Assembly: GCA_048940925.1 (NCBI GenBank)
Contig: JBHLOC010000008.1
Span: 32,001 to 96,000 of the forward strand
Source: Promethearchaeota archaeon
GTDB lineage: Archaea; Asgardarchaeota; Lokiarchaeia; Sigyniarchaeales; SOKP01
Direction: 5' to 3'
Length of the DNA stretch: 64,000 bases
Both the position numbers and the translations under genes were made by a program. Below, one piece after another: positions 25,272 to 58,021 of this stretch. A model generated the notes under the pieces. That model made no database searches and was not told the origin of the DNA. It saw nothing but the letters and a program-made list of their open reading frames with translations. Position 1 is the first letter of the stretch. Each line of letters opens with the position of its first letter.

Positions 25272-25287
25272 TTTTATTTTGATATTA

Positions 25288-26441: not shown

Positions 26442-27408
26442 TTGGGAACTGGAAAAGGCTTTGGAAAGACCATACTTTTTGGCGAAATTTTATCCCTCTT
26501 TCAGGTATAAACGCAAACATTTTGTAGTGTATGGCTTACCAGCAATTGCTTCAGCATTAAGTTCTTTTACTACAGCTAAAGTAAAAGTTGTTAAAGGAAA
26601 TGGTTGGGTGGTTGATGATCAAAGACCTGCTACACCTGGATATAAGGAACAAAAATATAATGATGCTATGCAATCTATTGTAAATGTGATTCAGCATTTA
26701 AACATTGATTCGGAGAATCAAAAACTTGAAATAACTTTTGCTGGTGACTTAATAGCTGCGAGTGGTGTCGGTGCATCGGCAGCTCAATGTACTTCTTTAG
26801 CTCGTGCAATAAATAATACTTTTAATCTAAACCTAAATAATGAAGAGATTAACGAAGCAGCATATGAAGGAGAGAAAGCATATCATGGGACGCCATCAGG
26901 AATTGATAATACAGCTTCTACATATGGTGGTTTGATTTGGTTCATTAAGAATTTAAGCGGTGGAAAGAATAAGATGGATTTACTACAATCACCAAAAAGG
27001 ATCCCCCTTGTGATCGGGAATACTGGAATAACTGCCTCGACTACAGAGGTTGTTTCGGATGTAAGAAGCCAAAAAGAAGAAAATCCAGAAAAGTATGAGA
27101 AAATCTTTAATGACTATAAAATATTAGCAACTAAAGCAAAGGATGCGTTATTAAGGGGTGATATCAATGAGATTGGAAGACTTATGAATCAAAATCATAA
27201 ATTATTACAAGATATAACCGTATCTGGAGAATTAAATGATAAATTAGTGGATGTAGCACTTAAAAATGGTGCTGTTGGTGCAAAAATGACTGGAACTGGA
27301 CGTGGAGGCTTGATAATAGCATTAGCTGAAAATGAAGAAATACAAGGGCAAATAGCAAATGCAATCAAGAGAGAGGGATATGATGCTTGGGAAACTATGA
27401 TTGGATGA
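26442..27408 (+). CDS. mvk: Mevalonate kinase, split by a 31-nt BHB-type intron (exons 26442-26486 and 26518-27408; 311 aa spliced)
   Basis: TTG start 5 nt after SD GGTGA gives MGTGKGFGKTILFGE, which joins HFVVYGLPAIA. Downstream motifs: GVGASAA, HGTPSGIDN and GAKMTGTGRGG. Confidence 0.9.
26487..26517 (+). other. Putative BHB-type mRNA intron in mvk (31 nt)
   Basis: GGCG-AA|A-TTTTATCCCT-CTTTC-AGGTATAAA-CGCA-AA|C. Removal restores GGC GAA CAT TTT (GEHF); the unspliced frame hits TAA at 26508-26510. Confidence 0.8.
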
Positions 27409-27457
27409 GAAAAAAGTTACCTAAAATTAAACACTCTGAAATTATATTTTATTTATC

Positions 27458-28162
27458 ATGAATGATCTCGACCTTGATATTCGACCAATCACTATGGACG
27501 AATGGTTACCAGATCGTTGTCTCGGAGGTGGCAAACCAATTGATCCTTCCAAACTCACACTTCAAGCTGGCTGCACCAGTCTTTGCTTGTTCTATACCGC
27601 TACCGCACTAGGGATATCACGTCAAGAATCACTTACTCAACCAGCAGATGAAATTAAGAAAAAGGCTGATCGAGAACCTGCATGTCGTAGCATGTTGGTT
27701 GAATTATATCGTGAAACAATCGAAAAACATGGAGGTTGTGGTTTTGTTGCTTGGTATGAAGGTAAAATCGTAGGGTACCATAATTTCTTCCCTCGGAATA
27801 TTGCACGCAGGATTAAGTTCTTTGGTTGGGGAGAAGATATTGACAGTTCTAAACTAACACTCATACACAATTGCATTACCCATATACGTGGAGATTACCG
27901 TCGTAAGAAGATTGGAACACGACTTGCCCGGACATCCTTGACATGGGCGAAAGAAAACGGATGGGAACGGTTTGAGGTACATCTTGTACTCCCGGACGTT
28001 GAAAATGGTTTCCGCAATGAGCAAAAGTCATGTCGTACCTTCTGGGAAAAACTGGGATTGACGGTATTTAGAACATTTTCTTCAGATGAAGAAACACAAA
28101 AAGTTTATGGTGTACCAGTCCGACACTCTATGGCGGTTGATCTGACAACGTGGAAACCCTGA
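27458..28162 (+). CDS. GNAT-family acetyltransferase, probably horizontally acquired
   Basis: YRRKKIGTRL acetyl-CoA motif and FWEKLG; visibly more GC-rich than neighbours. Confidence 0.7.
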   Translation: MNDLDLDIRPITMDEWLPDRCLGGGKPIDPSKLTLQAGCTSLCLFYTATALGISRQESLTQPADEIKKKADREPACRSMLVELYRETIEKHGGCGFVAWYEGKIVGYHNFFPRNIARRIKFFGWGEDIDSSKLTLIHNCITHIRGDYRRKKIGTRLARTSLTWAKENGWERFEVHLVLPDVENGFRNEQKSCRTFWEKLGLTVFRTFSSDEETQKVYGVPVRHSMAVDLTTWKP

Positions 28163-28301
28163 AACTCCCAACATTAATAATATAAATAATAATTGAAAGA
28201 AATTAAATCTAAATATTACAGGTTTTATGTAATATCTTTGATTAAAAAATTTGTGGATTTATAGCTTAACAAAGAAGACCTGTTAAATTATTCCTTATTA
28301 A

Positions 28302-28513
28302 GATATAGGAGGATTTGCTTATAACTTCCTTCGTTCTGCATGGAAAGACCGAAAAGAAAATTCCATTTCTAATACTGTTAAAGAAATAAAAATTTTAAAA
28401 AATGAATTAAGATCTCGTGTATGGTTAATGAATTTAGATAAGATTGAAAAATTAATAGGTAGACGAGATAAATATGTTATTTTTGGGGTTTATATAGGTG
28501 GTTTCATCAATAG
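28302..28513 (+). pseudogene. Remnant of the type 2 IPP isomerase C-terminus
   Basis: Translates DIGGFAYNFLRSAWKD..VKEIKILKNELRSRVWLMN.. then shifts frame to LYRWFHQ*. This parallels NIGGFAFKFLKTAWKD..IKEIKTLKQELRSSLWLMN..LYQWINQ* in 35172-37070. Confidence 0.85.
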
Positions 28514-28515
28514 CT

Positions 28516-29067
28516 CTATACTGATCCCCATCTTTTTATATTGGTTTCTAAACCTATCTGGTCAAGTATTCTTCCTACAGTATGTTCAATTAATTCAGTA
28601 ACATCTTTAGGTTTAATATAGTAAGAAGGAACAGGTGGAGCGATTATAACTCCTAACCTCGCCAGTTTTAGCATATTTTCTAAATGAATTGCATTTAATG
28701 GACTTTCTCTTACAACTAATATGAGTTTTCTTTGTTCTTTTATCATTACATCTGCTGCCCGAGTAATCAAATTATCTGCATATCCGTTTGCAATTGCTGC
28801 TAATGTTTTCATTGAACAAGGCACTATAATCATATTCTCTATTTTGTATGAGCCACTCGCTGGTGGAGCAGCCAAATCGTCTACTGTGTAATTCTTTGAA
28901 GCTAAATTACGGATCTTAGAAATAGAGTAATCTGTTTCAAGCTCAATTATTTTTTGAGCACTATCAGATATAATTAATTCTCGGTTAATTTCATTTTCTT
29001 TAAGGATTTCTAATAATCGTATGGCAATTTGAACACCAGTTGCCCCTGAAATCGCAATTAACACCAT
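28516..29067 (-). CDS. ubiX: Flavin prenyltransferase
   Basis: AISGATG, ASGS, PCSMKTLAAIA, RAADV.IKE and RESPL..IHLEN. Confidence 0.95.
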   Translation of the reverse strand: MVLIAISGATGVQIAIRLLEILKENEINRELIISDSAQKIIELETDYSISKIRNLASKNYTVDDLAAPPASGSYKIENMIIVPCSMKTLAAIANGYADNLITRAADVMIKEQRKLILVVRESPLNAIHLENMLKLARLGVIIAPPVPSYYIKPKDVTELIEHTVGRILDQIGLETNIKRWGSV

Positions 29068-29319
29068 AAGTTTGAAGTAGACCTTAATTTTTGTCTAATA
29101 AAATGTTTCAATTATTTTTAGGTTTTTCTAATTTTTATTATAATTCCGAAATCTAAAATGATAATCAACCTAATAAAATTTTATAATATTTAATTTAAAA
29201 CAAAAAATAATGTCATTTTAAGCTTTATAATAAAATTTAGTAATTCTCCAATCTCTATATGCATTAGTAAATGTTCTTCTTTTTCCTTTACATAAATAGA
29301 ATTATTTAGCTATAATAAA

Positions 29320-30687
29320 GTGAAATTATTTATTATTACAAATAACCAAATTGAGGAAATTCAAAAACTAATAAAAATAGAAATTGACTCCTATTACTCC
29401 AAATGTAAAAAACCTAATAGTTATTCTCAGATAGCTAAAGATCTCGGATTTAGCCCTCCGACTATTCGTAAATATGCAAAGAGATATTTAATTAGAGAAT
29501 ATGGAGAAAATGGTGGTTTAGAATTATACAATCAATACAAAAAGTTAAGTCGTAAAACACCAAATAAATGGACTTATGAGTATTTACAGGAATTAGCAAA
29601 AAGAAGAGGATTAGAAGAAAATAACATTGAAGGAAAGTTAATTACAACTAAAGATGAATTTTTCGAATCTATAAAAAGTCAATATCCAAGTGGTGTTAAG
29701 TTAAAATGGTGGTGTGGAAAAAAAAATCATGACCCATGGGAAACTTCTGGGAGTGAGGTAAAACGTAGTTGGTGTCCTAGATGTTTTAGAGAAAGAGTGA
29801 GCTTTTCATATAGTTATCTACATGCTTTAGCAAAAAAAAGAGGTTTTGAAGAAACTCGAATCGAAGGGATACTTATTACAAATAGGAAAGAATTCGCAAG
29901 ACTAATAAAAAAAGGTATCGAGCCAAGTAAAATAAAATTAAAATGGTGTTGTTGCATAAAAGATCATAATCCTTGGGAAGCTTCAGCTAAAGATATAAAA
30001 GGATATAACTCAAGAAAAGGATCTTGGTGCCCTAGATGTGCTATAGAAAAGAATAGTCTTTCATATGAAGACCTACGAGCTCTAGCCAAGAAAAGGGGCA
30101 TTGAAGAGACAGGAATAAAAGGAACGCTTATTACTAGTAAGCAAAAGTTCGAGAAATTAGCAAAAAGAGGTACTGAGCCAAGTAAAACAAAACTAAAGTG
30201 GTGGTGCTGTAATAAAGATCATGAACCATGGAAAGCTACTCCTAATAGCATAAGCAGAGGGACTTGGTGTCCGTATTGTTCACAAGGTAAGTATGAAAGG
30301 ATTTGTCGCCGTTTTTTCCAGATAATATTTAAAGAGAAATTTCGGAAAATTTCGTTATCAAATTTAATTAAGGATAGCGATATAAAAATGCACTTAGATG
30401 GGTATGCTAAAGTAAACATTCATGGTAAATTGATAAAACTAGCCTTTGAATACAATGGATATCAACATTACATATGGCCCAATGTGTACCATAACACTGT
30501 ACAAAAATTCCTTGAACAGCAAGACCGAGATATTCTAAAAAGAAAAATATGTGAAGAAAATGGAATCATTCTAATCGAGTTTCCATATAAGATAAGTCCT
30601 AGGATGAAAGAACCTGAAAAAATAAAGAATTTTATCATTAGTGGATTTGAGAATAAAACAGGTATAAAATTACCAAAATTACAATAA
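29320..30687 (+). CDS. Free-standing putative endonuclease: HTH, three Zn-ribbon repeats and a Vsr/DUF559-like nuclease domain
   Basis: SQIAKDLGFSPPTIRKY; three KLKW.C...H.PW...WCP.C units; HLDGY..AFEYNGYQHY..RD..KRKICEENGIILIEFPY. Confidence 0.75.
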   Translation: MKLFIITNNQIEEIQKLIKIEIDSYYSKCKKPNSYSQIAKDLGFSPPTIRKYAKRYLIREYGENGGLELYNQYKKLSRKTPNKWTYEYLQELAKRRGLEENNIEGKLITTKDEFFESIKSQYPSGVKLKWWCGKKNHDPWETSGSEVKRSWCPRCFRERVSFSYSYLHALAKKRGFEETRIEGILITNRKEFARLIKKGIEPSKIKLKWCCCIKDHNPWEASAKDIKGYNSRKGSWCPRCAIEKNSLSYEDLRALAKKRGIEETGIKGTLITSKQKFEKLAKRGTEPSKTKLKWWCCNKDHEPWKATPNSISRGTWCPYCSQGKYERICRRFFQIIFKEKFRKISLSNLIKDSDIKMHLDGYAKVNIHGKLIKLAFEYNGYQHYIWPNVYHNTVQKFLEQQDRDILKRKICEENGIILIEFPYKISPRMKEPEKIKNFIISGFENKTGIKLPKLQ

Positions 30688-30741
30688 CATAACTGTTCAA
30701 ACTAGTAAATCTATTTTTAAGGTGTGATAGAAATGCAAGAA

Positions 30742-31848
30742 TTAAATAAGTCCCCTTGCGACAATTTGCGATGACCTATATTTTTCCCACAGTGATAAAA
30801 ATTTCTTCAATGTCTCATCACTTGTATAAATTCTATTTCTTGCCTCTCTTTTAGCTTTTAATATTTTAAGAAACCTTTTATCTAAATTTCGGATATAATA
30901 ATCGCCTAATTTGTCTAATCTATCTCTTTTTTCCCCTAGTTTGATAGTATCTATCGCAATCTCACCTGACATCATTGCATAAGGGATCCCTTTACCACTT
31001 ATTGGATCTACAAATCCTCCAGCATCCCCTACAGCAAACACATTTTCTTTGTATAGCTGTTGTTTTAATCCAACTGGAATCAAATGAGGTTTGAAAATTT
31101 CCAGTGTTGCATCTTTTAAAGCTTGTTTTACGAAGGGGAGTGAAATGAATTTATCAAACTCTTTTCTTGAATTTTTTATTAAATTAATTTGATTACCCCA
31201 ACCTACGGTAATAGTTTCCGCTTTTGGGAATAACCATGAATAACCAATAGGTATTAAATTCTCAATTCCAAAAAACAAATGTACAGTGTCATCCCCGAGA
31301 ACTTCAGCAATTTTTGATTTAGTGCTTTTCATTTCTTTAGTGATCGTTAAAATAATATTAGTATTGTTAAAATTCGGCCAATTTAGTGATTTCAACGTTG
31401 GGGATGTAACCCCATCAGCGGCTATTACATATTTAGAAGTATATGTATCTTTTTTAGTCGTTATAAGGTATGAATCCCCTTTTCTATCTATACTAATTAA
31501 TGGTTCGTCTTCTTTTAGAATTGCTCCGCAATCTACAGCCCAATCTGTTAAAAATTTATCAAATGTGCTTCGCCAAATGACAGCACCTTTACCTTTTTTA
31601 GAGTAATCTTCTCCATCAACATGATGTAGTTCTAAAGATTCTATTATACGACTAATTTTTTCTTCAGGATAATCAATTTCTTCTACTAATTCCCAAGCTA
31701 TAGCCCCTCCACATGCCTTATATCGACCTTCTTTATTTAATTTCTCTTTCTCAAGTATACATGTTGAATATCCATTATCTGCTGCAATCTTTCCTGCAAC
31801 TGATCCTCCTGGACCTGCCCCAACAACCAAAATATCAAAATTGTTCAT
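30742..31848 (-). CDS. Geranylgeranyl reductase-family FAD oxidoreductase
   Basis: DILVVGAGPGGS, KACGG, AADG, GYSWLFPK and VGDAGGFVDPISGKGI. Confidence 0.85.
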   Translation of the reverse strand: MNNFDILVVGAGPGGSVAGKIAADNGYSTCILEKEKLNKEGRYKACGGAIAWELVEEIDYPEEKISRIIESLELHHVDGEDYSKKGKGAVIWRSTFDKFLTDWAVDCGAILKEDEPLISIDRKGDSYLITTKKDTYTSKYVIAADGVTSPTLKSLNWPNFNNTNIILTITKEMKSTKSKIAEVLGDDTVHLFFGIENLIPIGYSWLFPKAETITVGWGNQINLIKNSRKEFDKFISLPFVKQALKDATLEIFKPHLIPVGLKQQLYKENVFAVGDAGGFVDPISGKGIPYAMMSGEIAIDTIKLGEKRDRLDKLGDYYIRNLDKRFLKILKAKREARNRIYTSDETLKKFLSLWEKYRSSQIVARGLI

Positions 31849-31953
31849 AAGGATTTTCTCTATTTTTATGAGATTCTTATAAGAAAGTGAAGCTGTATTA
31901 AAAATATTATACAATAATACATACTTATTTTGAAATTTCTATTTATAAAAAAA

Positions 31954-32760
31954 CTAATCTTTTTGCTCAGTAAGAAAAGAAAGCAAAATATTGTTGAATT
32001 CATCAGAATTTTCCATATTACTCATATGTCCTGCACCGCTGATTATTACTTTTTTCGCTCCCTTTATTCCAGAGCTAAGGATATTAGCATTTTCTTGAAA
32101 TTGCGGGATATCAAGTTCACCAACTATTATAAGGGTCGGTATGTTTATTTCACTTAGTCTTTTTTCAGGAGGAGGTCTCGGAGCGATAGCATTTGTTGCT
32201 TTAAGAAAGAATGCGCCTTGACCTTGCGCAACATGTCCATTCAATACCATTTCTTCCATCCTTTTTTTAACATTAGGAATCCTCATTGCCGGTTCAAAAA
32301 GAGGGTCACTCAACCAGTCTTTAAGGGCAGATTTCAAGTCTTGATTAATACCTTTCATAATATAGTTAAAAATTCGTTTATCGCATTCGCGTGAAGGATT
32401 AAAGGTGATGGCAGAGTCTGCAACGACTAATGAGTGCACCAATTCTGGATATTCTATCGTAAAAATGGTTGCTACATGCCCACCCATAGATAAACCCACA
32501 ACATGAGCGGAATCTATTTTTAAGGTTTCAAATAATCCCTTAAGATCATCTTCTTGTTTAAAGCGGTTGGAAACTCCTTCAGATCGACCATGACCCCTCT
32601 GATCGAATCGTATTACTTGGTAAGATTTAGCAAGCAAATCAAACTGGTCATTCCACATTCGATTATCAAGAGTAAAACCATGGATAAGAACCACAACTTC
32701 ACCCTCTCCTTTTTTTTCATAAAATAATTCGGGTTTTTTATTTCCTTCATCGCTACTCAT
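31954..32760 (-). CDS. Alpha/beta hydrolase
   Basis: LIHG, DQRGHGRS, GLSMGG nucleophile elbow, GELD and AGH; start taken at MSSDEG. Confidence 0.88.
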   Translation of the reverse strand: MSSDEGNKKPELFYEKKGEGEVVVLIHGFTLDNRMWNDQFDLLAKSYQVIRFDQRGHGRSEGVSNRFKQEDDLKGLFETLKIDSAHVVGLSMGGHVATIFTIEYPELVHSLVVADSAITFNPSRECDKRIFNYIMKGINQDLKSALKDWLSDPLFEPAMRIPNVKKRMEEMVLNGHVAQGQGAFFLKATNAIAPRPPPEKRLSEINIPTLIIVGELDIPQFQENANILSSGIKGAKKVIISGAGHMSNMENSDEFNNILLSFLTEQKD

Positions 32761-32847
32761 AGTAATACAGCTCTTAGAAAGATTGTAATTATAGAAACCT
32801 GTATGGTTTTTAAATTTTAGCTTCAGAGTATATTTAAACATTTTCAT

Positions 32848-34521
32848 TTATGAAAATTTAAGTATTGCTCCTTTCGAAGCAGAAGAGACAAGATGTCTGT
32901 ATTTTAAAAGTGCTTTGCTTCTAATATCTTTTTCAAAGGGTTTCCATTTTTTTAATCTTTCTTGAATTTCTTCATTTGAAATCTCTATGTCAAGTCTTCT
33001 ATTAGGTATATCAATCTTGATTAAATCCCCATCTCTCACTAAAGCAATTGGTCCTCCGACGTATGCTTCTGGAGTCACATGACCAATACAAGGACCTGAA
33101 GTATACCCTGAAAAACGTCCATCAGTAATCAATGCAACTTTATCTAATTTGGGTTTGCCTACTAAAGTCATAGTTACAGCAAGTAATTCAGGCATACCAG
33201 GACCTCCTTTCGGACCCTCATACCGAACAATAAGTATAGAATTATTTTGAATTTGTTCAGATGTTAGAGCGTCAAGAACATCTTGTTCTGAATTAAAACA
33301 TAATGCTGGTCCATCGAATTTCAACATATGCTTATTTTTAATTGCCGATTGCTTAACAATAGCCCCTTCTGGTGCTAGAGTGCCCTTTAATACTACAGTT
33401 CCTCCTTCAGGGAAAATAGGATTAGTCAAAGGTCGTATTATATTTTCATCTAGAACTTCAATTTTTCTTATAATTTTTCCAATAGTTTTTCCAGAAACAG
33501 TTAAACAATCTAAATGAAGAAAGTCTTTTAATCTACTCATTACAGCAGGGATCCCTCCTGCTTTATATAAATCTGGAGTACCAAAATCTCCCGAGGGAGC
33601 AATATTTGCAATGGTTGGAATTTTTTTATTATATTCATTAAATATTTCTAAATCAAGATCTATCCCCATCTCATTTGCAATTGCAGGAAGATGTAATGTT
33701 GAGTTCGTTGATCCTCCAATTGCTAAATCTACTATTACAACATTTTCTAAAGAATCTTTGGTCATGATTTGAGATGGAGTTATGTTTTCTTTCAATAACT
33801 CAATTATTCTTTTTCCTGAATTTTTAGCAATCATATATTTCATTTGAGTCATTGCTGGGATAGTAGCAGCGTTTGGTAATGTCATTCCAAACGCTTCCAT
33901 TAAACATTGAGTAGTATTTGCAGTACCCATGGCTTCACATGCTCCATATGTGGCACAAGTTATGCATCCAAACTTATGAGTAAAATCTTCATAAACATCC
34001 GTTGTAATACCTTTATAACCTGGCATGAATCTTACTTCATATAAATTAGATCCTCCTGGAACACATATAGTTGGGATATCTAATCGTACCGCTGCCATTA
34101 GAATTGCCGGGTTGATTTTATCGCAACTAGATAAAGTAACCATAGCATCTAATCGATGTGCATCGGCCATTAATTCAATTGAATCAACTATTACCTCTCT
34201 ATGGGGTAAAATAGAACGCATACCTACATTTCCCATAGCTATTCCATCACACGCTCCAATGGTACAGAACTCAAAGGGTACTCCTCCTGCTTCTATGATT
34301 CCATACTTTACTGCTTCGGCAAGAGTTCTTAAATGTTTATGACCTGGATTGAGCTCATTCCAAGTATTTACTACTCCTATGAAAGGTTTTTTATCAATAT
34401 CTTGATCATCTAAACCTAAAGCCTTTAATAATTCTACTTTACCATTTCTAAAAGGTGTCTTATCAATACCATCAAAAAGGCTTTTACTTCTTATTTTTAA
34501 GTTAACTTCTTCTTCATCCAT
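32848..34521 (-). CDS. ilvD: Dihydroxy-acid dehydratase family
   Basis: CDGIAMG, CDKINP, GTANT, GGSTN, RYEGPKGGPGMPE and TDGRFSG. Confidence 0.9.
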   Translation of the reverse strand: MDEEEVNLKIRSKSLFDGIDKTPFRNGKVELLKALGLDDQDIDKKPFIGVVNTWNELNPGHKHLRTLAEAVKYGIIEAGGVPFEFCTIGACDGIAMGNVGMRSILPHREVIVDSIELMADAHRLDAMVTLSSCDKINPAILMAAVRLDIPTICVPGGSNLYEVRFMPGYKGITTDVYEDFTHKFGCITCATYGACEAMGTANTTQCLMEAFGMTLPNAATIPAMTQMKYMIAKNSGKRIIELLKENITPSQIMTKDSLENVVIVDLAIGGSTNSTLHLPAIANEMGIDLDLEIFNEYNKKIPTIANIAPSGDFGTPDLYKAGGIPAVMSRLKDFLHLDCLTVSGKTIGKIIRKIEVLDENIIRPLTNPIFPEGGTVVLKGTLAPEGAIVKQSAIKNKHMLKFDGPALCFNSEQDVLDALTSEQIQNNSILIVRYEGPKGGPGMPELLAVTMTLVGKPKLDKVALITDGRFSGYTSGPCIGHVTPEAYVGGPIALVRDGDLIKIDIPNRRLDIEISNEEIQERLKKWKPFEKDIRSKALLKYRHLVSSASKGAILKFS

Positions 34522-47926: not shown

Positions 47927-47974
47927 GTTACAATACCAAAAACTATTCATTCCAAAACATTTGGATTTTAAATT

Positions 47975-50035
47975 TTAAACAGATTCTAAAAATTTATAGG
48001 CAACATATAAAAAAGCGTCATTCACATTTTCACCAGATTTTGCAGATGTAAGTATATAATGAAAATCATGTTTATCAGCTACTCTTTTTATATCTGATTC
48101 ACTAATTATAAACTGATCAGTTAGATCCGATTTATTTCCTATTAATATAATATCAATATCTGTTTTAACATAATTTTTAATTTCATCATACCATTTATCA
48201 ACACTCTTTAAACTATCTAAACGCGTTCTGTCGATTACTATAAAAGCAAATTTTGCTCCTTCATAAAACTTTTTTCTATAAGGTGCCATCTTAGGTAATT
48301 GGCCACCAATATCCCATATTACGAATTTTATTTTTGTATTTTCACTTAATTCTATTTCCCTTTGCGAAATATCTACTCCCACTGTAGAATGATAATCTTC
48401 TTTGAAGAGATTTAGGACATATCTCTGAATTAATGATGTTTTACCTACTGCATAATCACCTGTTAAAATTAATTTAAAAGAAAACTGCCCCTCTGGAATT
48501 TTGCCTTCTTTGGTTTTAGATAAAATTCTTACAATCTCTGGGATCTCAAGAGATATATTTTCATTTCCTTCCAAAATTAGTTCGATTTTTGTAGCAACAT
48601 GTTCAGAATAGACCCTTAATTCTGTATCTGAAGGAGAAAGGTTAGAAATCGTCAATAAAATTGACTTTGAACCTTTTGAACAATAAGCAAATTTGTTATC
48701 TTGAATAGTTGTTACATTAAAAAAACTACTTTCATCGCCAAATTCTCTTTTTATTCTCTCAATAAATGTATCAATTGTAACTGCTAATGCTCCTAATAAA
48801 GATTCATCTTCCGTTTGTTCACTGCTGACTGAAGTAATGATGAAACCGTCTCGATCACTTACTATTACCGATATAATTCCCTCAGTATTTTTCATATAAT
48901 TCTTTAATAATGTCGTTAAAAGTTTATCTAACGAAGATATTCTTTTTGGGCTATATTGTTCTGCTATAGTCGAAGTTGTTGATATTACTAATTCTTGTTG
49001 AGATTCAGATCTTTTTAATCTATTTTGTATTTCTTGATATTTATTATAAAATTCTAATTCTTGAAGATTTTCTCCAAGTTCTATGCATATATTTACAATT
49101 TTTTCATAAATTGAATCTGCTTTCTCAAGATTAACCTCAATTAAGGCAATTTCAAATTCATTAATTAATATTTCTTTATCATACATTAATTTTAATATAG
49201 GTGCAATTTGTTCAAACATCTCTAAGGTTTTTAAAATAATTCTCAATAACGTATCTTGATATTCTGAATCCGTGGCAATTACAGGATATACTTTTAGGTT
49301 TAAGATCTCTTCTATTTGAGCTGGTTCTAATATATCTTTTAAATCCTGTTTATTGCCTAAACCACAAGTGTAAGCTAAAGGTGTTTCTTCTTTTGTTTTA
49401 TTTAAGAAAAATTTACTTTTATTTATATTTTCTAAGCTAGAATCAGTTATTATAATTACTGCATCACTTCCCTTGATGAAATTATTCCATAAAAAGCCAA
49501 TTTCTTCTTGTTCAGTAAAATCTCTCAATAGAAAGTGTATTTTTCCAATCTTTAATAGTGCAATATCTCCTCCGATTTGAGAGTCATGTTTTAGTGGAAT
49601 TTCTTTTGTCCTTATTAAATTGAAAATTGTAGTTTTTCCAACTTCTTTATACCCTACTAACGAAATTTTGGGCGGAAATTTATTTTGGAATGAATAGATT
49701 ACGGGATCAAAACTCTTTAAACTATTTGCATCAAATTTCTGGAGTAGATTATCTTTAAATAAATTTACAAAATTTTCTTTACACTTTACTAATTCTCTTT
49801 CAATAATTACAGGATCATCAACTATAGTATTAATAAATAAAAATAATAAATTGAATTCTTCATCTCCTAAATATGATATACGGTCTCTTTTATGATCCCA
49901 ATATTGAAATGTATTAATAATGCCTGAAAATATCTCTTTTTTTAAGAATTCAAAATTTTCTTTCTCAAGAGCTTTTCCGAAAAGTTTTTTATATATGAGG
50001 ATCTTATTTTTAAAAATATAAACTTGCCTTAAAAT
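47975..50035 (-). CDS. Multidomain longin - degenerate GTPase - roadblock - Rab-like GTPase (686 aa), probable ATT start
   Basis: The frame is open to 50047. The extension reads LRQVYIF..(longin-like)..KISLVGYKEVGKTT..RDFTEQ..NKQD. Then roadblock (VSDRDGFII) and GDYAVGKTS/WDIGGQ/NKSD/TSAK. ATT lies 7 nt after SD AAGGTGA. Confidence 0.85.
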   Translation of the reverse strand: MLRQVYIFKNKILIYKKLFGKALEKENFEFLKKEIFSGIINTFQYWDHKRDRISYLGDEEFNLLFLFINTIVDDPVIIERELVKCKENFVNLFKDNLLQKFDANSLKSFDPVIYSFQNKFPPKISLVGYKEVGKTTIFNLIRTKEIPLKHDSQIGGDIALLKIGKIHFLLRDFTEQEEIGFLWNNFIKGSDAVIIITDSSLENINKSKFFLNKTKEETPLAYTCGLGNKQDLKDILEPAQIEEILNLKVYPVIATDSEYQDTLLRIILKTLEMFEQIAPILKLMYDKEILINEFEIALIEVNLEKADSIYEKIVNICIELGENLQELEFYNKYQEIQNRLKRSESQQELVISTTSTIAEQYSPKRISSLDKLLTTLLKNYMKNTEGIISVIVSDRDGFIITSVSSEQTEDESLLGALAVTIDTFIERIKREFGDESSFFNVTTIQDNKFAYCSKGSKSILLTISNLSPSDTELRVYSEHVATKIELILEGNENISLEIPEIVRILSKTKEGKIPEGQFSFKLILTGDYAVGKTSLIQRYVLNLFKEDYHSTVGVDISQREIELSENTKIKFVIWDIGGQLPKMAPYRKKFYEGAKFAFIVIDRTRLDSLKSVDKWYDEIKNYVKTDIDIILIGNKSDLTDQFIISESDIKRVADKHDFHYILTSAKSGENVNDAFLYVAYKFLESV

Positions 50036-50321
50036 AGAATTTTCACCTTAATATTGATATTTTCGATTTCACATGTTTAATTGAATTATTAATTATTATT
50101 AATTTAATAATGGTTAAAACGAAATAATATATTTTTCTACATTTATTTTTACTCATTTAATATTATCCAAAAACTATAGATATAAAAATCTGTATTAGTA
50201 TAATATTTTACAAATAAGTTAGGGTATATAATTGAACTAGCTTATCACTTATTTAATATAAAACAGAGTTAAGAAAATTTATTTTATAAGATATAAATAA
50301 ACAACGGTAAAACTTTTTAAA

Positions 50322-53300
50322 ATGACAGTTAGAAAAAATAAATCAAAAAAAAGAATAAAATCTCTTGGAATTCTTTTTCTTACAATAATTTTACCAGCCA
50401 TTATTAGCACACCACTATTTTCAATTTTTAATGAACCAAACCAAACTATTGAACAAGACAATACTGAAAAGGATGAAAGTAGGGAACCACAATTCCCAAC
50501 CCCCTCAAGTAATCTTCCTAATGCCCATTATTTTAGTTATTATAAAACTATTACAATTGATCACACAAAAGTCAATGGTGATCATTCTAATTTTCCTGTG
50601 TTAATTTCTATAATCGACTCAGACTTGGACGATAAGGCTCAGTTTGATGGGGATGATATTGCTTTTGCAAATAGTACTGCATGGCTAGATCACGAAATAG
50701 AGCTATATGACCCAAGTTATAGTTTCGATGAAGCCCAACTTATTGCATGGGTCCAGATACCTTTTTTATATAATTCAACTGATACATTTATATTCATGTT
50801 TTATGGTAATTCCACTATAGGGCCCCAAGAACATGCAACAGGAGTTTGGGATTCCTATTATAAGGGTGTATGGCATTTAAAAGAAGATCCTGGAGGTCCA
50901 AATGATATTAAAGATTCAACTTCGAATGATAAACATGGAACTTCAAACTCAATGTGGATGTCTAATCAGGTGTCAGGAAAGATTGATGGTAGTTTAAATT
51001 TTGATGGAAACTATGATTATATAAGTGTGGGTGATGTTGGACCAGAAATAAAAACTATTGAATTTTGGATGAACCCCGATTCTCTCGCAAGTTATGGTGA
51101 TGTGGATAACTCAGGTCCTCACAGCCCAACTGCAACTGGAGAAACATATGATCAGTGGAACGCCCCAACTAATGCTTATGCTAGTGATGATTTATTTGCA
51201 AATGCATCAGGATATTATCCAGATCAAGATTATTACAACTTTTCTTTTAATATACCTGCTGATGCTCTTATTCAAGGTATTGAGGTATCTATTGAGGGAA
51301 TGTCTGGAACACAATATCAGACAGCTAGATGTAGAATAAGGCTTTCCGGAAATGGCGGGAGTACTTATACCGATTATTATGAGTTAAGTTGGTGGAGTAG
51401 TTATTATGACGATTATGATACAGCTGGAGGTTCCACAAATACATGGGGCAAACTTGGAGGATGGTCGCCATCTGAGTTTAATAATGCTAACTTCAGAGTT
51501 CGGCTTGAAGAATCAGGTCAGGCTATTTTACTTGTTGATCATCTCATTGTTACAGTATATTATAGGATACCTGGTGATATAGCAGTGATTGACCTAAATG
51601 GAAATGCTCAAATTTCAATTGATAAGGATGGTGGTGAAATAAAAGCTTTTGGTTTTCCGGGTACAACCAATATTTATATTAATGGAACAATGGAGACTAA
51701 AGTAGGTATAGGAACATGGTATCATGTAGTAATTATTAATACAATTGGAGTCCTTGGTTCGGATTTTGTTATTGCGGGAAATATTTCAGTGAACTTTGAT
51801 GGTCTTTTCGACGAGGTTCGTCTCTCCAATATAACTCGCTCACCAGAGTGGATTGCCACTGAATATAATAATCAGTACGATCCAGATAACTTTTACTTTA
51901 TTAGTGAAGAAAGAACTTCGGTGACTGATGTTCGAGTTAATGCTTTTGATCTATATGGTCATATCATTCCAAATGTAAATATTTCCCTAATTCAAAATAA
52001 TATAATAATTAGGAGTGCTATAGCAAATGCTAGTGGGGCTGTTATGTTTGAAGGTGTACTTTCAATAGATTATAAATATAATTTTAGCGTATCCATGACA
52101 TCAAATATCGCACCTTATCACACAATTATCATTAATAGAACATCTGAAGCAATCCTAATAGAAGGAGAATCTCAAACTATTAATTTAATATGCAATATAT
52201 CCAGAAATATCTTTAATGTGGTAGATACTGATGGAATTCCACTTGATTCTGGATGGATTATAGTTGGTAATTATTCAGATCCAATTCAGAATTGTACTAT
52301 TGACCAAAATGGACAAGCTACATTTAGGTGGTTAAATAATAGCGCTTATAATTATACAGTATGGTATCGTGATGTTGATTATAATCATGAAAATCAGCAT
52401 AAAATTGAAGTAGCAACAGGAGACATATTCAAAAGTCAATATGATTCAGAGATCAATATAACTACAATCTTAACAACAGTCAATTTTACACTTTTTACTA
52501 AGAATAATCCTCAACCCGTTGATGGCGCCAAATTAATATTGGGCAATGCTAACTTAGACAGAAGTATTGTAAATTTAACCACAGACATAGATGGAAAAGC
52601 AACGCTTAGGTGGGTAAATTCTTCTGGTATTAATTCAGATTATTCATTGCAAGTTAGTTTCTATGGAAAGCTATGGGACATTGAAATAGAAGATCTTATG
52701 ACAGGTGTGAAAAAACAAATCAATTTTACAGTGAAAGCTAAAGCAGCTTATAATGTGAGCATTATTCTTGAACCAACTGAGCTAGAAAAATTTGAAACAG
52801 ACCTAATATCATTAAATCCAATAAGCAATATTCAAGTAGAATGGGGTTCGAATGTAACATTCAGAGCATTATTCAATGTAACTAAAGTACCTTCAGGATA
52901 TGAAAATTTAACTGGACCAACCTATGCAGAACCGATGTCATATAAAATATTTGAAGATTCAACCCTCATTCTTTCTGGAATAATACCCACAGAAGATGAT
53001 TATATTGGGAGACATAAGAAAGAAATTAGAACAGATGAGTTAGAAACTGGGATAGTTTATATAATTATAATAACAGCTCAAAAACCTGGATATGTTTTGC
53101 CTTCAGAGGACATTATAATGTCATTGTACCTTTTAGAAAATGAACTAATATTAAACCAATCCGAAAATGATGATTCACCTCAATCAATACCTTGGCAGGA
53201 GTTTACCAACATGTCAGTAAAACCATATGGTATAATCTCTGAAGATTTCAGTATAGACTATAATATGTATAATTGTAATAATGGTACATTTCAATTTTCA

Positions 53301-56300
53301 ATCCCAAGTATCTCAAACGAGTGGGTTTTATCTCGGATTGTATTTAATGTTTATGATGTGACTTTTGGAGTGGGCCCTGGAGAAATAAATTTAAACATTA
53401 CTGATGATTTTGGTGTAAGACATGATTTTGATTCAAATTGGGATCATTATTATTATGACCCATTGGCTACTAATGGGAGTTGGAGCAATTTAGAAGTTAT
53501 TTTAAATAAAGGGGAAGTAACTGGCGGTGATACTTTTAATTTTACATTTGATGGAACTTTTGTAGGAGATATAGATATCATTGCTACATCTTATTTTATT
53601 CGGGATAAAATTAATGTTCAATATTCAAAATTCAATGTTACAGATTCCATACCTATTTTAACTGACCTTGAAGGATGGGCAATTCAAAACATAACATTTC
53701 TAATTTATGACTGCTATAATTTTTCTGCAGGAAGTAAAGCAAATTTAGCATCTCTGTCAAATCTCAATATAACTACCAATGAAGGTTATACGTATTCACT
53801 AGACTCTGGCGATATTTTTGGAAATGGAAACCTCACTATAGATGATAGAATAATCTATCCTTTAGATAATCAATTCTTATTTACAATAGAAGCTAATGGA
53901 AATCTAACATTTCATGTAATAATTAAAGTTGAATATATCCAAGAATTTTTACAAAATCAATATATTGAGAAAATTAATATATCAAAAACAGAACACGATT
54001 TTGGTAAAACAGATACTTTTCAAGTCAAGTTTATCGAGAAAAAATGGACTGAGGATTATGCAACCTTAGTATTTAGTGGGATATCCCCATTAGGTGGGCT
54101 CAGTTTACTTCCATCAGAAATAAATATGACTATTACAATAGAAGGTGAAACATATAATATTGAGGACTTAATGGTTGGACAAGGAATCTTTTCTTTGGAA
54201 GGGCTTGAAAAGGATAAAATATTAACAGCCATCATAGACACAAATTTAACGTCTTCTATTATTTTCAATTTGTCTTTCATGATTAAATATTCCAGAATTG
54301 TGACTTATGAAACTAAAGGACAAGTTAATTTTTCTATTATAGAGAAACCTGAAATATTTGGCGGAGTTCAATATAATGAGGATTTGGGATATTATTTACT
54401 GTTTATAAACACATCCTTACTAGATGCTAATGATTATACTATAAGGTTTACTATCACTAAAGAGAATTATAAATTATCAACAAAGGATCTGGAATTATTT
54501 GTATTAGAAAGATTTACTTTACTTAATGGCTCTGCTGACTTCTTTAGAACTTTTGAGCAAATGTATGTTATGGAACCAGTAAACTTCACATTCTACTATA
54601 TAGATGCTTTAACATATCAACCAATTACAGATTTAGACCAAAAAACTTATGTTTGGGAGTATTATGATGATGAGGGGAATGTGATAAAAACAGGACAAGG
54701 TACTCTTTTTACTCAAGGATATTACCATATACTAGACATAGATACGGAAAAATTCAAACTAGGTGAATATTTAATAGTTATTACTTTAAGTAAAGATAAC
54801 TACGAATACAAAACAGGAATAATTACATTAACCGTTTTAGAACGCCCAACCTTGATTAATGGTGAGTCTGTATTATCAGTTATTCAAGAGAATATTTATA
54901 TAGGTGATGCAATCAATTTTACATTTACTTACATAGATGAAATAACAAATATGAATATAAAAAATCTTGCTGTACAATCCTTTATATGGGAAGAATTTAA
55001 TGCCACAGGTGCTTTAATAAACAATGGTACAGGATCGTTGGTATCAAGCCTAAATGATCTATATGTTTTAGATTTTGATACCAAGACAAGAGATCCTAAC
55101 ACTTTCAAATTAGTTATCACATTAGATAAAGAAAATTATACTTTTCAATCAGCTACAATTTTATTAAATATCAACTTGAGAGAATTCAGTTATACTTTGG
55201 GTGATAATTTCAGGAATAACAAAATTAACATTGGTAAAGGAAAAAATGTTGTTATTGAAATTCATCTCATTGATTTAACTCGAAATAATTTTGATTTATT
55301 AGATGCCATAGTCCAGATATCAATTAAAGGCCATGTGTATACATTTCAACAAGTAGAAAATGGGATATATCGTTATGAATTAAGTACAAATAATATCGAT
55401 ACCTTCTTTGCTTCAAAGATACTTACTGGTGTTATAATGATCTCTAAAGAAAATTATGTATCAGAAGAATTTAGCATTACGATTGTTGTTGAAATGGAAG
55501 AGATCTTCTCAGGTATACCTATATTTTACTTTCTATTAGGATTAATTACTAGTATTAGTCTAGCTGGTAGTATTGTTGGATATAGAGTGTATAAAAATGT
55601 TACAACCCCTACATTTGTGAAAAGAGTACGAGCGATGAAAAAGGCAATTGAAGGAGAAAAAGAAATCTCTGAATCTCTATTATATCCCAGTAAGATTGAA
55701 TTTATTGGTCGACGAGTAAAAAGTAAATGGGATAAGCTTGGATTATCTTTAGCTGATATTCTTAGAATTAAAATTGAAAAAGAAACACTAAAAAGAAAAA
55801 TTAGTGAAGATGTTACACGACGTGAGTTTACGCCACTTGGATTATTATTAATGCAATGGGATGAAAAAATGGGTACTAAAGTTTTAGCTAAATACCCCGA
55901 AAATCTTGATGCATCTGAAAAAACCTTAATGCAAATATACGGTACACATGAATACAGTGGAGAAAAAGGAATAATAACTCTAACAGTAGGGATGACAAAT
56001 ATTATTTCATATTATACAGGACCTGAACAAGCATTTTATTTACTGTTATTCCTGAACTTGGATGATGACCCTGATGTTTATGAGGGCGGTATGGCAAATA
56101 TTATTTCAATAATCTTAGAAAATCTTAAAGATGATTCTTATTTACAAATGATCCCTTATCTCTTCCAACGCTTATCTATATATCCATCGCTTAGTGATGA
56201 AGAAATTCTAGCATTGAATTATCAAGATGAAATCAAACGATTGATTATAAACATGTTAAGAGATGATGGAGCAATCATCAAATCAGAATTATCTATATGG

Positions 56301-56924
56301 CTCAGAGAAAAAGCTTTAGAGGGATTTATTGATTTAGATGCTATTCTTCTAGAACTAGCTAAAAAAGATATTATAAAGCAAATTGCTATCAAGGGTATAC
56401 CTTCAGCATTAATTGTTCTTACTACTGATATTTTTATGCTGCGAGTTCCTCCTGTAAAATTATTAGAAGATCCAGTAAACCGTGGTTTACCATCACAATT
56501 TGCCAAAACATATCCTTCAGAAGTTAAGAAATTTTTCCAAGAATATCATCCTACTGAAGAAGATAACCTTAAAATCATAGAACTCTTCATTAATCCCCAA
56601 GTTTATGAAACACTACGTTTACTCAGAACCGCTATTGTTACAAGACAAGACCTCGAAAAGTTAAGTAAAAAAGGGGTGGAAGATATCTACGGTGTTTTAA
56701 AAATACTCTGGGATAATCACATGATTAAAGTATATCAAGATGAAAATGATATAGAATATTACGCGCTCCTTTCCGATTTCTATATGGATCTTTTATTCCC
56801 TAAATATATGTTGGAAACTATTAAAACATCTTATGAGCAAAAATCTAAAACTAATAAAGTACTTATTGAATACCTAAAGGCACTTGAGGATACATATTTT
56901 GAATTAAAGAAACAAGAAAAATAA
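50322..56924 (+). CDS. 2200-aa single-pass surface protein: signal anchor, DUF2341/LamG-like and Ig-like ectodomain, TM helix, cytoplasmic longin/uDENN-like domain
   Basis: N-terminal hydrophobic segment; YYKTITIDHTKV..NFPVLI, GVWHL and DEVRLSN..RSPEWIATEYNNQ; many NxS/T sequons; TM near 55512-55590; ~440-aa cytoplasmic tail. Confidence 0.8.
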   Translation: MTVRKNKSKKRIKSLGILFLTIILPAIISTPLFSIFNEPNQTIEQDNTEKDESREPQFPTPSSNLPNAHYFSYYKTITIDHTKVNGDHSNFPVLISIIDSDLDDKAQFDGDDIAFANSTAWLDHEIELYDPSYSFDEAQLIAWVQIPFLYNSTDTFIFMFYGNSTIGPQEHATGVWDSYYKGVWHLKEDPGGPNDIKDSTSNDKHGTSNSMWMSNQVSGKIDGSLNFDGNYDYISVGDVGPEIKTIEFWMNPDSLASYGDVDNSGPHSPTATGETYDQWNAPTNAYASDDLFANASGYYPDQDYYNFSFNIPADALIQGIEVSIEGMSGTQYQTARCRIRLSGNGGSTYTDYYELSWWSSYYDDYDTAGGSTNTWGKLGGWSPSEFNNANFRVRLEESGQAILLVDHLIVTVYYRIPGDIAVIDLNGNAQISIDKDGGEIKAFGFPGTTNIYINGTMETKVGIGTWYHVVIINTIGVLGSDFVIAGNISVNFDGLFDEVRLSNITRSPEWIATEYNNQYDPDNFYFISEERTSVTDVRVNAFDLYGHIIPNVNISLIQNNIIIRSAIANASGAVMFEGVLSIDYKYNFSVSMTSNIAPYHTIIINRTSEAILIEGESQTINLICNISRNIFNVVDTDGIPLDSGWIIVGNYSDPIQNCTIDQNGQATFRWLNNSAYNYTVWYRDVDYNHENQHKIEVATGDIFKSQYDSEINITTILTTVNFTLFTKNNPQPVDGAKLILGNANLDRSIVNLTTDIDGKATLRWVNSSGINSDYSLQVSFYGKLWDIEIEDLMTGVKKQINFTVKAKAAYNVSIILEPTELEKFETDLISLNPISNIQVEWGSNVTFRALFNVTKVPSGYENLTGPTYAEPMSYKIFEDSTLILSGIIPTEDDYIGRHKKEIRTDELETGIVYIIIITAQKPGYVLPSEDIIMSLYLLENELILNQSENDDSPQSIPWQEFTNMSVKPYGIISEDFSIDYNMYNCNNGTFQFSIPSISNEWVLSRIVFNVYDVTFGVGPGEINLNITDDFGVRHDFDSNWDHYYYDPLATNGSWSNLEVILNKGEVTGGDTFNFTFDGTFVGDIDIIATSYFIRDKINVQYSKFNVTDSIPILTDLEGWAIQNITFLIYDCYNFSAGSKANLASLSNLNITTNEGYTYSLDSGDIFGNGNLTIDDRIIYPLDNQFLFTIEANGNLTFHVIIKVEYIQEFLQNQYIEKINISKTEHDFGKTDTFQVKFIEKKWTEDYATLVFSGISPLGGLSLLPSEINMTITIEGETYNIEDLMVGQGIFSLEGLEKDKILTAIIDTNLTSSIIFNLSFMIKYSRIVTYETKGQVNFSIIEKPEIFGGVQYNEDLGYYLLFINTSLLDANDYTIRFTITKENYKLSTKDLELFVLERFTLLNGSADFFRTFEQMYVMEPVNFTFYYIDALTYQPITDLDQKTYVWEYYDDEGNVIKTGQGTLFTQGYYHILDIDTEKFKLGEYLIVITLSKDNYEYKTGIITLTVLERPTLINGESVLSVIQENIYIGDAINFTFTYIDEITNMNIKNLAVQSFIWEEFNATGALINNGTGSLVSSLNDLYVLDFDTKTRDPNTFKLVITLDKENYTFQSATILLNINLREFSYTLGDNFRNNKINIGKGKNVVIEIHLIDLTRNNFDLLDAIVQISIKGHVYTFQQVENGIYRYELSTNNIDTFFASKILTGVIMISKENYVSEEFSITIVVEMEEIFSGIPIFYFLLGLITSISLAGSIVGYRVYKNVTTPTFVKRVRAMKKAIEGEKEISESLLYPSKIEFIGRRVKSKWDKLGLSLADILRIKIEKETLKRKISEDVTRREFTPLGLLLMQWDEKMGTKVLAKYPENLDASEKTLMQIYGTHEYSGEKGIITLTVGMTNIISYYTGPEQAFYLLLFLNLDDDPDVYEGGMANIISIILENLKDDSYLQMIPYLFQRLSIYPSLSDEEILALNYQDEIKRLIINMLRDDGAIIKSELSIWLREKALEGFIDLDAILLELAKKDIIKQIAIKGIPSALIVLTTDIFMLRVPPVKLLEDPVNRGLPSQFAKTYPSEVKKFFQEYHPTEEDNLKIIELFINPQVYETLRLLRTAIVTRQDLEKLSKKGVEDIYGVLKILWDNHMIKVYQDENDIEYYALLSDFYMDLLFPKYMLETIKTSYEQKSKTNKVLIEYLKALEDTYFELKKQEK

Positions 56925-56986
56925 CAAAAATCTTCTATTCTTTTTATTTTTTTTAAACTTCTTATTTTTTTATTATTGTTTGTTGA

Positions 56987-57066
56987 TAAATCCACACCCG
57001 AGCAGAGTTTTCATCAAATAACTTTCCATAAGAGGTTTTTTTATTTGATTCATTATGATGGATTTA
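56987..57066 (-). promoter_or_regulatory. Eukaryote-like SECIS element
   Basis: Minus strand: helix I TAAATCCA/TGGATTTA, core ATGA...GA, perfect 9-bp helix II ATCAAATAA/TTATTTGAT, apical AAAAA with a CC/GG mini-stem. Starts 5 nt after the TAG at 57072. Confidence 0.8.
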
Positions 57067-57071
57067 CTTTA

Positions 57072-58021
57072 CTAGCAACCATCCGATTGCTGGAGATTGA
57101 TTTTTATAAATGCTTCCTCTTGAAAGTTGCGTTGTTCTGATTTGACAGATCTATTTACTTGATGTAAATGTTTCATAGCGTCATTTTTTCCTTCTTTAAT
57201 GTTTTTAATTAGTTCTTCTTTACTAAATCCGCCAGAAATTACTAATGCTGTTTGAAAGGACTGTTCAGGTTCTAAAGTTTTAAATTCAATCTGTAATGCA
57301 GATAAAATTTCATCAGGGCCCTCATGCAAAGTATTAGAAAGATTCAATCTATTTTGATCGATTTTGAAATCTTTTGTTAAACATGACTCGTAATTTGTCG
57401 ATCTTGAAATGGGTGAAAACCCACCGTATAAACCAGTATCATCATATTGGTAAATTATATCATTTTCCTCATCGTAACCTGAAAGATCATTGTTATAACC
57501 TTCAAGTCCATTTATATCAAAATCAAACACAAAATACATTGAAAAGTCTTTCATGTTATAATCCGAGATATTTTTCATTGTAAAGAACGTGCTGATATAA
57601 GGAACCTGAGGTGGATTGAATATATCCTTATACACACGAATAAATTCCTTTTTTTTCAGATTAATAGCAGGTAACTTTTTTTCTCTAACCAATTTCTTTA
57701 GATATTCTGTAATGTTAAAATCTAAAGTAATTCTGCTTATAACAGTGCCTTTACGGGTGTTAACTAAATTATAAATTGGTGTTGGTTCAATATTTCTTAG
57801 AATCACCGGAATAGTTCCAATTTTTTTTCCTTCTAGCTTAAAGCTAAACCACGGACCAGTAAATTCCTGCTCACTAAGATATATAAGATATTTTCCCTTG
57901 TATGTTAGTTCTTTAATTGAAAACCCCATGACATATCCAGCAGCATTTCTTGTTTCAAATTTTAATTAAAATTGAAGATTCAAGTCGCCAGTACATCATG
58001 CCAGTGAACCTTAAGGACTAT
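57072..58021 (-). CDS. Putative novel selenoprotein, split by a 32-nt BHB intron (exons 58021-57979 and 57946-57072; 305 aa, Sec14)
   Basis: SD AGGAGGT then ATA start gives MVLKVHWHDVLAT-UGA, which joins NAAGYVMGFSIKE... and runs into the 285-aa ORF. 3' SECIS present; C-terminus SDGC. Confidence 0.7.
57947..57978 (-). other. Putative BHB mRNA intron adjacent to the Sec codon (32 nt)
   Basis: CTTG-AA|T-CTTCAATTTT-AATT-AAAATTTGAAA-CAAG-AA|A: perfect 4-bp central helix and two 3-nt bulges. Contains TAA in both the exon-1 and exon-2 frames. Confidence 0.75.

Follow-up and report, generated by a model that had tools for sequence, protein, structure and literature searches.

How can a protein be made in full from a gene whose reading frame is closed by a stop codon shortly after its start? 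The question is raised by three genes in a 64,000 nucleotide (nt) stretch of Promethearchaeota archaeon DNA (GenBank GCA_048940925.1, contig JBHLOC010000008.1, positions 32,001–96,000, referred to here in its entirety as the window), which encode a mevalonate kinase (mvk), a mannosidase-like glycoside hydrolase of family 38 (GH38) and a third, unnamed protein (window positions 57072–58021). An earlier sequence-only reading had claimed that hairpin inserts of 30–32 nt (31, 30 and 32 nt as measured here) follow first exons of 45, 51 and 43 nt in these genes, respectively, and that they share a G-AA^N junction (the caret marks the cut) and carry a stop codon in the exon-1 frame, and all of this is present in the sequence (the stops are TAA in mvk, TGA in GH38 and TAA in the third gene). 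The finding holds up and has biological meaning, and on the comparative evidence given below we consider the three inserts to be tRNA-type bulge-helix-bulge (BHB) mini-introns of the relaxed HBh' form, placed in coding sequence and spliced by the endonuclease EndA and the ligase RtcB, with a probability of about 0.85. It is very probable that the three mRNAs depend on these tRNA-splicing enzymes for cutting and rejoining, and we infer that cleavage and ligation take place in vivo at all three sites. The relatives carrying these genes are metagenome-assembled genomes (MAGs) of the Promethearchaeota/Promethearchaeia, which are Loki-type Asgard archaea, and the lineage suggested earlier was therefore right.

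Each of the three inserts has the 5' junction G-AA^N, and the four exon bases ahead of the AA are paired to positions -6 to -3 of the insert, counted back from its 3' end, with a hairpin lying between them. The resulting core, a helix of 4 bp with a 3-nt bulge on each side on opposite strands, is that of a BHB motif, and the inner helix (h') is a stem of 7–10 bp in all three inserts. The central helix is formed by CGTG/CATG in GH38 (one G-U pair included; CGTG-AAA ... CATG-ATT when written with the bulges), by CTTG/CAAG in the third gene, where exon 1 ends in CTTGAA (CTTG-AAT ... CAAG-AAA), and by GGCG/CGCA in mvk (GGCG-AAA ... CGCA-AAC), where three pairs are joined by a G-A mismatch at a position that is G-U in 4/12 distinct orthologs. 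The four-base pairing proposed in the sequence-only reading consequently stands for GH38 and the third gene but comes down to three pairs in mvk.

The cut sites were deduced by comparison with orthologs from the same genus (n = 19 for mvk, 30 for GH38 and 48 for the third gene, the last being related genomes counted besides this one). An mvk insert of 30–31 nt is found at the identical spot in 13 of the 19 orthologs and the other six, which lack it, read GGxGAA^CATTT; the GH38 insert is present in 5/30, with the 25 intron-less genes reading TGGGAYAGRGAA^TGGTAY (WDRE^WY); and the insert of the third gene (28–32 nt) occurs in this genome and in three of its 48 relatives, the remaining 45 reading ACTTGA^AAY. 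In all three genes the intron-less junctions (GAA^CAT, GAA^TGG and TGAA^AY) correspond to a cut after the second bulge base, as given by genomic comparison rather than by RNA ends, and the EndA cutting rule applied in the sequence-only reading reproduces them. A search for sequencing runs of this genome returned 18 DNA runs from six studies, with sediment and mangrove sites among the sources, and no RNA run. The boundaries of the inserts are unique, with non-repeated flanking bases, in GH38, in most carriers of the mvk insert and in the third gene of one relative (G023). The predicted spliced junctions are TTTGGCGAA^CATTTTGTAG for mvk, GGGACCGTGAA^TGGTATCTCC for GH38 and GCGACTTGAA^ATGCTGCTGG for the third gene, and the predicted junction-spanning peptides are ..TILFGEHFVVYGLPAIASALSSFTTAK and ..ETHWDREWYLPFQEFR.

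A genome scan found BHB-like geometry, defined as a central helix with at least 3/4 pairs plus at least four inner pairs, at a frequency of ~1.7 per 1000 position-and-length combinations, and its appearance at all three of the ortholog-fixed junctions lies, by our own estimate, far beyond chance. The alignment of orthologs that had been suggested as a check shows insert presence and absence to be exact and the stem pairing to be kept, with modest covariation. In mvk 85% of the alignment cells are paired compared with 38–51% in slid controls, and compensatory changes are seen in the central helix (C-G to U-A, with GGTG facing CAC in G003) and in the stem (U-A to A-U).

A number of observations weigh against a BHB assignment. 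The outer exon-exon helix (h) is weak or absent by comparison with the canonical hBHBh' motif, with at most 1–2 pairs in all three inserts, and the motif is thus the relaxed HBh' form; it should be noted that an outer helix of 8 bp is found elsewhere in this genome, in the intron at C30:66095. The central helix of mvk has only three Watson-Crick pairs in this genome, and the first inner pair of the third intron, a C-G pair in each of the other three carriers, is a C-A mismatch here. Owing to the close relationship of the sequences, the covariation is modest (two double-sided changes in mvk). When the isolated regions were modelled with RNAfold the hairpins were found, but the minimum-free-energy folds were not significantly more stable than those of shuffled sequences (z of -0.8 to -1.8), and the predicted GH38 fold favours a partly different outer pairing. 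As the folds are no better than shuffles, support for the assignment comes from comparison and not from energy.

The enzymes needed are encoded in the genome, in which we identified two EndA paralogs (PF01974 plus PF02778, the N and catalytic domains) of 198 and 200 amino acids (aa) sharing 28% identity, the second of which is without the catalytic Tyr/His positions, and one RtcB gene (556 bits). Judged by sequence, the two paralogs are the alpha and beta subunits of the endonuclease. Asgard EndA is an (alpha-beta)2 enzyme with an L1 loop that has been linked to the cleavage of relaxed BHB motifs (PMC5829648), and the L1 loop or hetero-oligomeric endonuclease has been linked to relaxed motifs in the case of cbf5 as well (PMC2738675); by analogy, we infer that the EndA of this organism is able to cut such motifs. 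The splicing machinery is heavily used, as ARAGORN identified introns of 9–89 nt in 22/34 tRNA genes. With 34 tRNAs found in the genome, some disrupted tRNA genes have probably been missed.

Some other hairpin-directed activity, be it a nuclease and ligase pair or a step dependent on guide RNA, might excise the inserts in place of EndA and RtcB, given that the missing outer helix means that they are not strict EndA substrates and that a stereotyped layout (1+9+5+9+4+2, see below) could reflect a dedicated reader. We think this very unlikely, since the cuts deduced from the orthologs are exactly those of EndA acting on a 3-4-3 BHB and L1-loop (alpha-beta)2 EndAs accept HBh' motifs outside of tRNA (PMC5829648, PMC2738675); furthermore, no alternative machinery turned up, though none was sought.

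Splicing by EndA and RtcB would proceed from a pre-mRNA in which the last six bases of exon 1 provide one strand of the central helix (4 bp) followed by two bases of a bulge, and in which the intron supplies a stem-loop of ~9 bp, the four complementary bases and a further two bases of bulge. In each 3-nt bulge the heteromeric (alpha-beta)2 endonuclease would then cut between the second and third bases, and RtcB would ligate the exons and circularise the intron. Only the ligated mRNA would encode the full-length mevalonate kinase, GH38 enzyme and third protein (the last as a selenoprotein, see below), and the three introns would belong to a set of a few dozen stereotyped, ~30-nt introns spread over the genome.

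The interrupted genes are under strong purifying selection. Exon 2 of mvk matches the TIGR00549 mevalonate kinase model with 215 bits (cut-off 163) and this is the only copy in the genome above that cut-off, and taken alone its match begins at model position 11 of 276; exon 2 of GH38 likewise matches Glyco_hydro_38N from model position 19, followed by the middle and C-terminal domains (the NCBIfam-type match, to a mannosylglycerate-hydrolase-like protein, is under its cut-off). As both matches begin late, it is exon 1 that encodes the missing, highly conserved N-terminal motifs; the positions of the splits fall within conserved motifs, and the exon 1 peptides and start signals are kept in the carriers. 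Ratios of non-synonymous to synonymous substitution (dN/dS) calculated among carriers only are 0.12 for mvk, 0.11 for GH38 and 0.06 for the third gene, with dS at 1.1–1.3, so the genes have long been functional while interrupted and pseudogene-like decay, which had been named as a possible objection, is not borne out. With a stop in the exon-1 frame of selected genes, removal of the insert would be needed for a full-length protein. The introns are themselves constrained, as their pairwise identities (77% for mvk and 88% for GH38) exceed the ~40% expected of neutral sequence at that dS. The Arg codon that supplies the helix strand is CGT in all GH38 carriers, and AGA, AGG, CGG or CGA in non-carriers.

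We undertook genome-wide scans for further introns of this kind. A strict scan (length L of 29–32, at least 8/9 stem pairs and at least 3/4 central pairs, plus the merging of two open reading frames (ORFs)) gave 49 ORF-merging matches at the true cut compared with 27–35 at cuts shifted by 1–5 nt, an excess of ~18, and as it detects just one of the three introns of the window the total is probably a few dozen. Scans of the genome using loose BHB rules or the G-AA/C..A signature produced no excess over frame-shifted controls; junctions between neighbouring genes overwhelmed the loose scans, and stem imperfections and the TGA caused mvk and the third gene to be missed. When a start codon and Shine-Dalgarno (SD) sequence were demanded there was no excess of 5'-proximal candidates either (134 compared with 107–131 in frame-shifted controls), and a structure-only length spectrum had no peak at 30 nt (84 compared with about 75), which rules out hundreds of such introns. 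The strict-scan match at C56:14413 is likely to be false, as it joins an SCP2 ORF to a GDPD ORF and these are probably two neighbouring genes.

Nine further split genes were verified by consecutive Pfam coordinates in both halves, and these encode EF-2, a member of the AMP/thymidine-phosphorylase family, an AIRS-like protein, methylmalonyl-CoA mutase, ELP3, a Ras-like GTPase, RNA polymerase A', RNase HII and a thiolase. Signature motifs are among the sequences split, with introns located before EEQERGITI in EF-2, after GHFGH in RpoA', in DEAGRG of RNase HII, after DIAGQ in the GTPase and in DKHSTGG of the phosphorylase. Most of the introns have the layout 1+9+5+9+4+2 = 30 nt, and in all eight of the introns parsed by hand both bulges start with A, but the G before the AA is not universal. 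They lie 30 to 180 codons from the preceding in-frame stop, which gives a maximum for the distance from the start. The argument of the sequence-only reading that three introns in 64 kb imply many in the genome extrapolates too far, in that others do exist but the data fit dozens rather than about 200; its proposal to scan for them was answered by the excess in the strict scan and by the lack of one near start codons. Given the positions of the other introns, 5'-proximity is no general rule, and a 5'-proximal regulatory gate comparable to HAC1/XBP1 is not supported. The claim of a splicing system is supported at the scale of dozens of genes.

This wider population bears on two further explanations. 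The inserts might be retained, leaving the genes inactive or yielding N-terminally altered proteins from internal starts, and open frames with such starts do exist (the 315-aa ORF at 26461–27408 which runs through the mvk insert, and the ATG at 57929 in the third gene, whose family is annotated in databases from the internal ATG). This is very unlikely, however, as the exon 1 peptides and start signals are conserved in carriers, the residues that would be lost are catalytic or ligand-binding motifs (GKxILFGEH and HWDRE), dN/dS is 0.06–0.12 over dS >1 with the introns constrained too, and this mvk is the sole copy over the TIGR00549 cut-off; moreover, EF-2 and RNA polymerase A', which are not dispensable, are split by the same kind of insert. 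Ribosomes might alternatively bypass the insert by hopping as in phage T4 gene 60, with no RNA splicing at all, and a stable hairpin with a stop codon shortly after the take-off region would suit this. It is nevertheless highly improbable, as the take-off and landing codons are unmatched (GAA and AAA/AAT in mvk, GAA and GAT in GH38, and a phase-1 junction in the third gene), the conserved pairing between the exon and the 3' end of the insert and the two 3-nt bulges are needed by EndA and not by hopping, and the same module is found at internal positions of many genes. An assembly or sequencing artefact is refuted by inserts at the same sites, with substitutions, in intron-bearing orthologs from 3–12 other assemblies by different depositors, including the closed MAG chromosome CP070805.

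Splicing by EndA and RtcB is thus preferred for all three genes, though the third requires a further assumption. The frame after splicing had been said to be coherent in every case, and this is so for mvk and GH38, but in the third gene it is coherent only if an in-frame TGA is read as selenocysteine (Sec), and the start codon is ATA. The TGA is in frame in 48/48 orthologs down to 65% identity, and there is coding conservation with synonymous variation on both sides of it (..WHDVLxT-U-NAAGYVMGFS); elsewhere in the genome TGA is an ordinary stop in 262/1973 long ORFs. The start is ATA (58019–58021), or ATT or ATC in a few orthologs (among L062–L147), 8–10 nt after GGAGGT; there is no in-frame ATG, GTG or TTG between the upstream stop and the TGA, and it is a conserved non-canonical initiation codon. 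A candidate selenocysteine insertion sequence (SECIS)-like element in the 3' untranslated region (UTR) has compensatory changes at 12/21 predicted pairs, while an Rfam scan of this UTR gave nothing above noise and no match to a SECIS model. Of the Sec machinery, one tRNA-SeC(tca), identified by ARAGORN, and SepSecS are present in the genome. The third gene is therefore most likely to encode a previously unrecognised selenoprotein specific to the Promethearchaeia. In databases it is entered as a hypothetical protein of 286 aa whose start is placed at an internal ATG, and no family was found for it by PDB sequence search, Pfam or NCBIfam.

We note some additional features of the mvk locus. The 31-nt length of the insert leaves the exon-2 frame open back through it to a TTG at 26461, and gene callers would consequently give a 315-aa mvk (26461–27408) having a nonsense N-terminus and without GKxILFGEH. 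Two upstream contexts exist in the genus (L001–L019), with mvk either adjoining a gene ending in ..GTVEVK* and starting with ATG, as in all six intron-less genes and four carriers, or preceded by an SD of its own (GGTGA) and starting with TTG. In this genome a further ORF (window 25279–26298) separates the upstream gene from mvk.

Table 1. Features of the three interrupted genes, the additional introns and the predicted splicing enzymes. Plain coordinates refer to the window; those with a contig prefix (C) refer to this genome (G000).
Feature	Position	Strand	Details
mvk exon 1	26442-26486	+	45 nt; TTG start after GGTGA; 15 codons (MGTGKGFGKTILFGE), ending GGCGAA
mvk exon 1 junction parts		+	GGCG, central-helix strand; AA, first two bulge bases
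mvk mini-intron (predicted)	26487-26517	+	31 nt; hairpin, then CGCA (pairs to GGCG), then AA before the cut
mvk exon 2	26518-27408	+	HFVVYG... to stop
GH38 exon 1	44148-44098	-	51 nt; TTG start; 17 codons ending ...ETHWDRE (CGTGAA); CGTG and AA at the junction
GH38 mini-intron (predicted)	44097-44068	-	30 nt; 1 bulge base, 9-bp stem, 5-nt loop, 9-bp stem, CATG, AT
GH38 exon 2	44067-41329	-	WYLPFQEF... to stop
Third gene exon 1	58021-57979	-	43 nt; ATA start 10 nt after GGAGGT; 13 sense codons, TGA, one base of the next codon
Third gene in-frame TGA	57982-57980	-	Codon 14, one base before the splice site
Third gene mini-intron (predicted)	57978-57947	-	32 nt, phase 1; hairpin, CAAG (pairs with CTTG), AA before the cut
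Third gene exon 2	57946-57072	-	Promethearchaeia-specific family; no Pfam domain
Third gene SECIS-like 3' UTR element (candidate)	56988-57065	-	Outer stem AAAUCC/GGAUUU; hairpin AUGA...UGAUGA flanking UCAAAUAA/UUAUUUGA
Nine further introns	C32:27895-27924, C62:7960-7991, C40:190863-190892, C78:59767-59796, C64:13177-13206, C71:54629-54659, C30:66095-66124, C40:183124-183154, C77:31160-31189		30-32 nt
EndA subunit genes (predicted)	C58:74241-74465 region; C18:73532-73780 region		
RtcB gene	C40:219876-221183		

The introns appear to turn over among close relatives. Placing the five carriers on the GH38 protein tree takes 4–5 changes, and for two of them (G019 and G053) the sister in each case is a non-carrier that is nearly identical; the distribution of the mvk intron needs 2–4 changes, and the species distributions differ among the three introns. 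The GH38 intron is identical at 30/30 positions between this genome and G019, the proteins being 78% identical. When G019 was compared with the intron-less G049 (L034 and L032), we found ~3.5% divergence downstream of the GH38 junction but ~17% in exon 1 and an unalignable upstream flank, and this jump places a recombination breakpoint at the intron. The pattern fits recombination in which alleles with and without the intron are exchanged, in a direction that is not proven. We propose from these distributions that, within this Promethearchaeia genus, species acquire, lose or swap such introns rapidly. An origin from a miniature inverted-repeat transposable element (MITE) or other repeat family was ruled out, as blastn-short showed that none of the three introns has a second copy in the genome.

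We also raise, as a tentative suggestion that we would not expect to hold, that the 30-nt modules are a proliferating, quasi-selfish population which favours conserved motifs (GEH of mvk, HWDRE^W of GH38, DIAGQ, GHFGH and DEAGRG), moves by homologous recombination of the conserved flanks and makes the tRNA-splicing enzymes essential for dozens of mRNAs, including those of core transcription and translation genes. If this were true it would be a living prokaryotic case of coding genes invaded by introns, in the lineage closest to the eukaryotes, and introns beside start or Sec codons could act as expression gates.

If the mRNAs are spliced as we propose, the tRNA-splicing endonuclease and RtcB would routinely mature the mRNAs of central genes in a close prokaryotic relative of eukaryotes, which bears on the origin of intron-bearing genes and of HAC1/XBP1-type splicing. 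Asgard annotation would be systematically off, with wrong N-termini, split ORFs and false pseudogenes (the 315-aa mvk and the 286-aa hypothetical protein being examples), and the fast turnover of presence and absence among congeners would provide a tractable system for the study of intron arrival and loss. Searches of full-text literature turned up no description of BHB introns in the protein-coding genes of Asgard archaea.

The nearest known case is the intron of the crenarchaeal cbf5 pre-mRNA, reportedly described by Watanabe in 2002 and by Yoshinari in 2006. Until now one gene, cbf5, has been the basis for spliceosome-independent splicing of archaeal coding sequences, and it was the only other archaeal mRNA case as of 2020 (PMC7714728). 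Like the introns described here, that of cbf5 is a short BHB-type intron in coding sequence, often relaxed, whose removal is required for a functional protein (Yokobori 2009, PMC2738675), and it shares with them the link to a hetero-oligomeric endonuclease and a patchy pattern of gain and loss among relatives (PMC2738675). However, cbf5 is a single gene in the Desulfurococcales and Sulfolobales, whereas here different genes are involved, probably dozens per genome, in an Asgard archaeon; the module is stereotyped at ~30 nt and its presence varies between near-identical sister genomes; and splicing of cbf5 has been experimentally shown, whereas that of the introns described here is predicted from genomes. 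With mvk, GH38 and an unnamed selenoprotein family as hosts, they are not members of the cbf5 orthologous intron, though alike in how they would work.

The archaeal tRNA and rRNA BHB introns (Marck and Grosjean 2003) have the same 3-4-3 geometry, cut after the second bulge base and use of EndA and RtcB, and Asgard tRNA genes are heavily interrupted following repeated gains by a route of arrival that is unknown (bioRxiv 10.64898/2026.10.13.758758). The introns described here differ in having a coding mRNA as host, with half of the motif built from codons, and in their uniform length (28–32 nt compared with the 9–89 nt of the ARAGORN tRNA introns of the same genome). A BHB intron in the 5' UTR of Haloferax volcanii HVO_1309 is likewise an endonuclease substrate near the 5' end of an mRNA; its cleavage has been verified in vitro and expression falls when endA is repressed (PMC7714728). 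It is, however, a single case of 46 nt from a euryarchaeon, located in an untranslated leader where it interrupts no frame.

In HAC1/XBP1 splicing, Ire1 and a tRNA ligase (RtcB in metazoa) remove a short mRNA intron independently of the spliceosome and the frame changes as a result; Ire1 is stress-regulated and its sites are the 7-nt loops of twin hairpins. In contrast, the junctions described here lie in 3-nt bulges around a 4-bp helix, and they also differ from the T4 gene 60 bypass in having no identical take-off and landing codons. What is new here are the host genes, the lineage, the number of introns, their uniform size and their turnover, and the proposed mechanism is one held in common with cbf5 and the tRNA introns.

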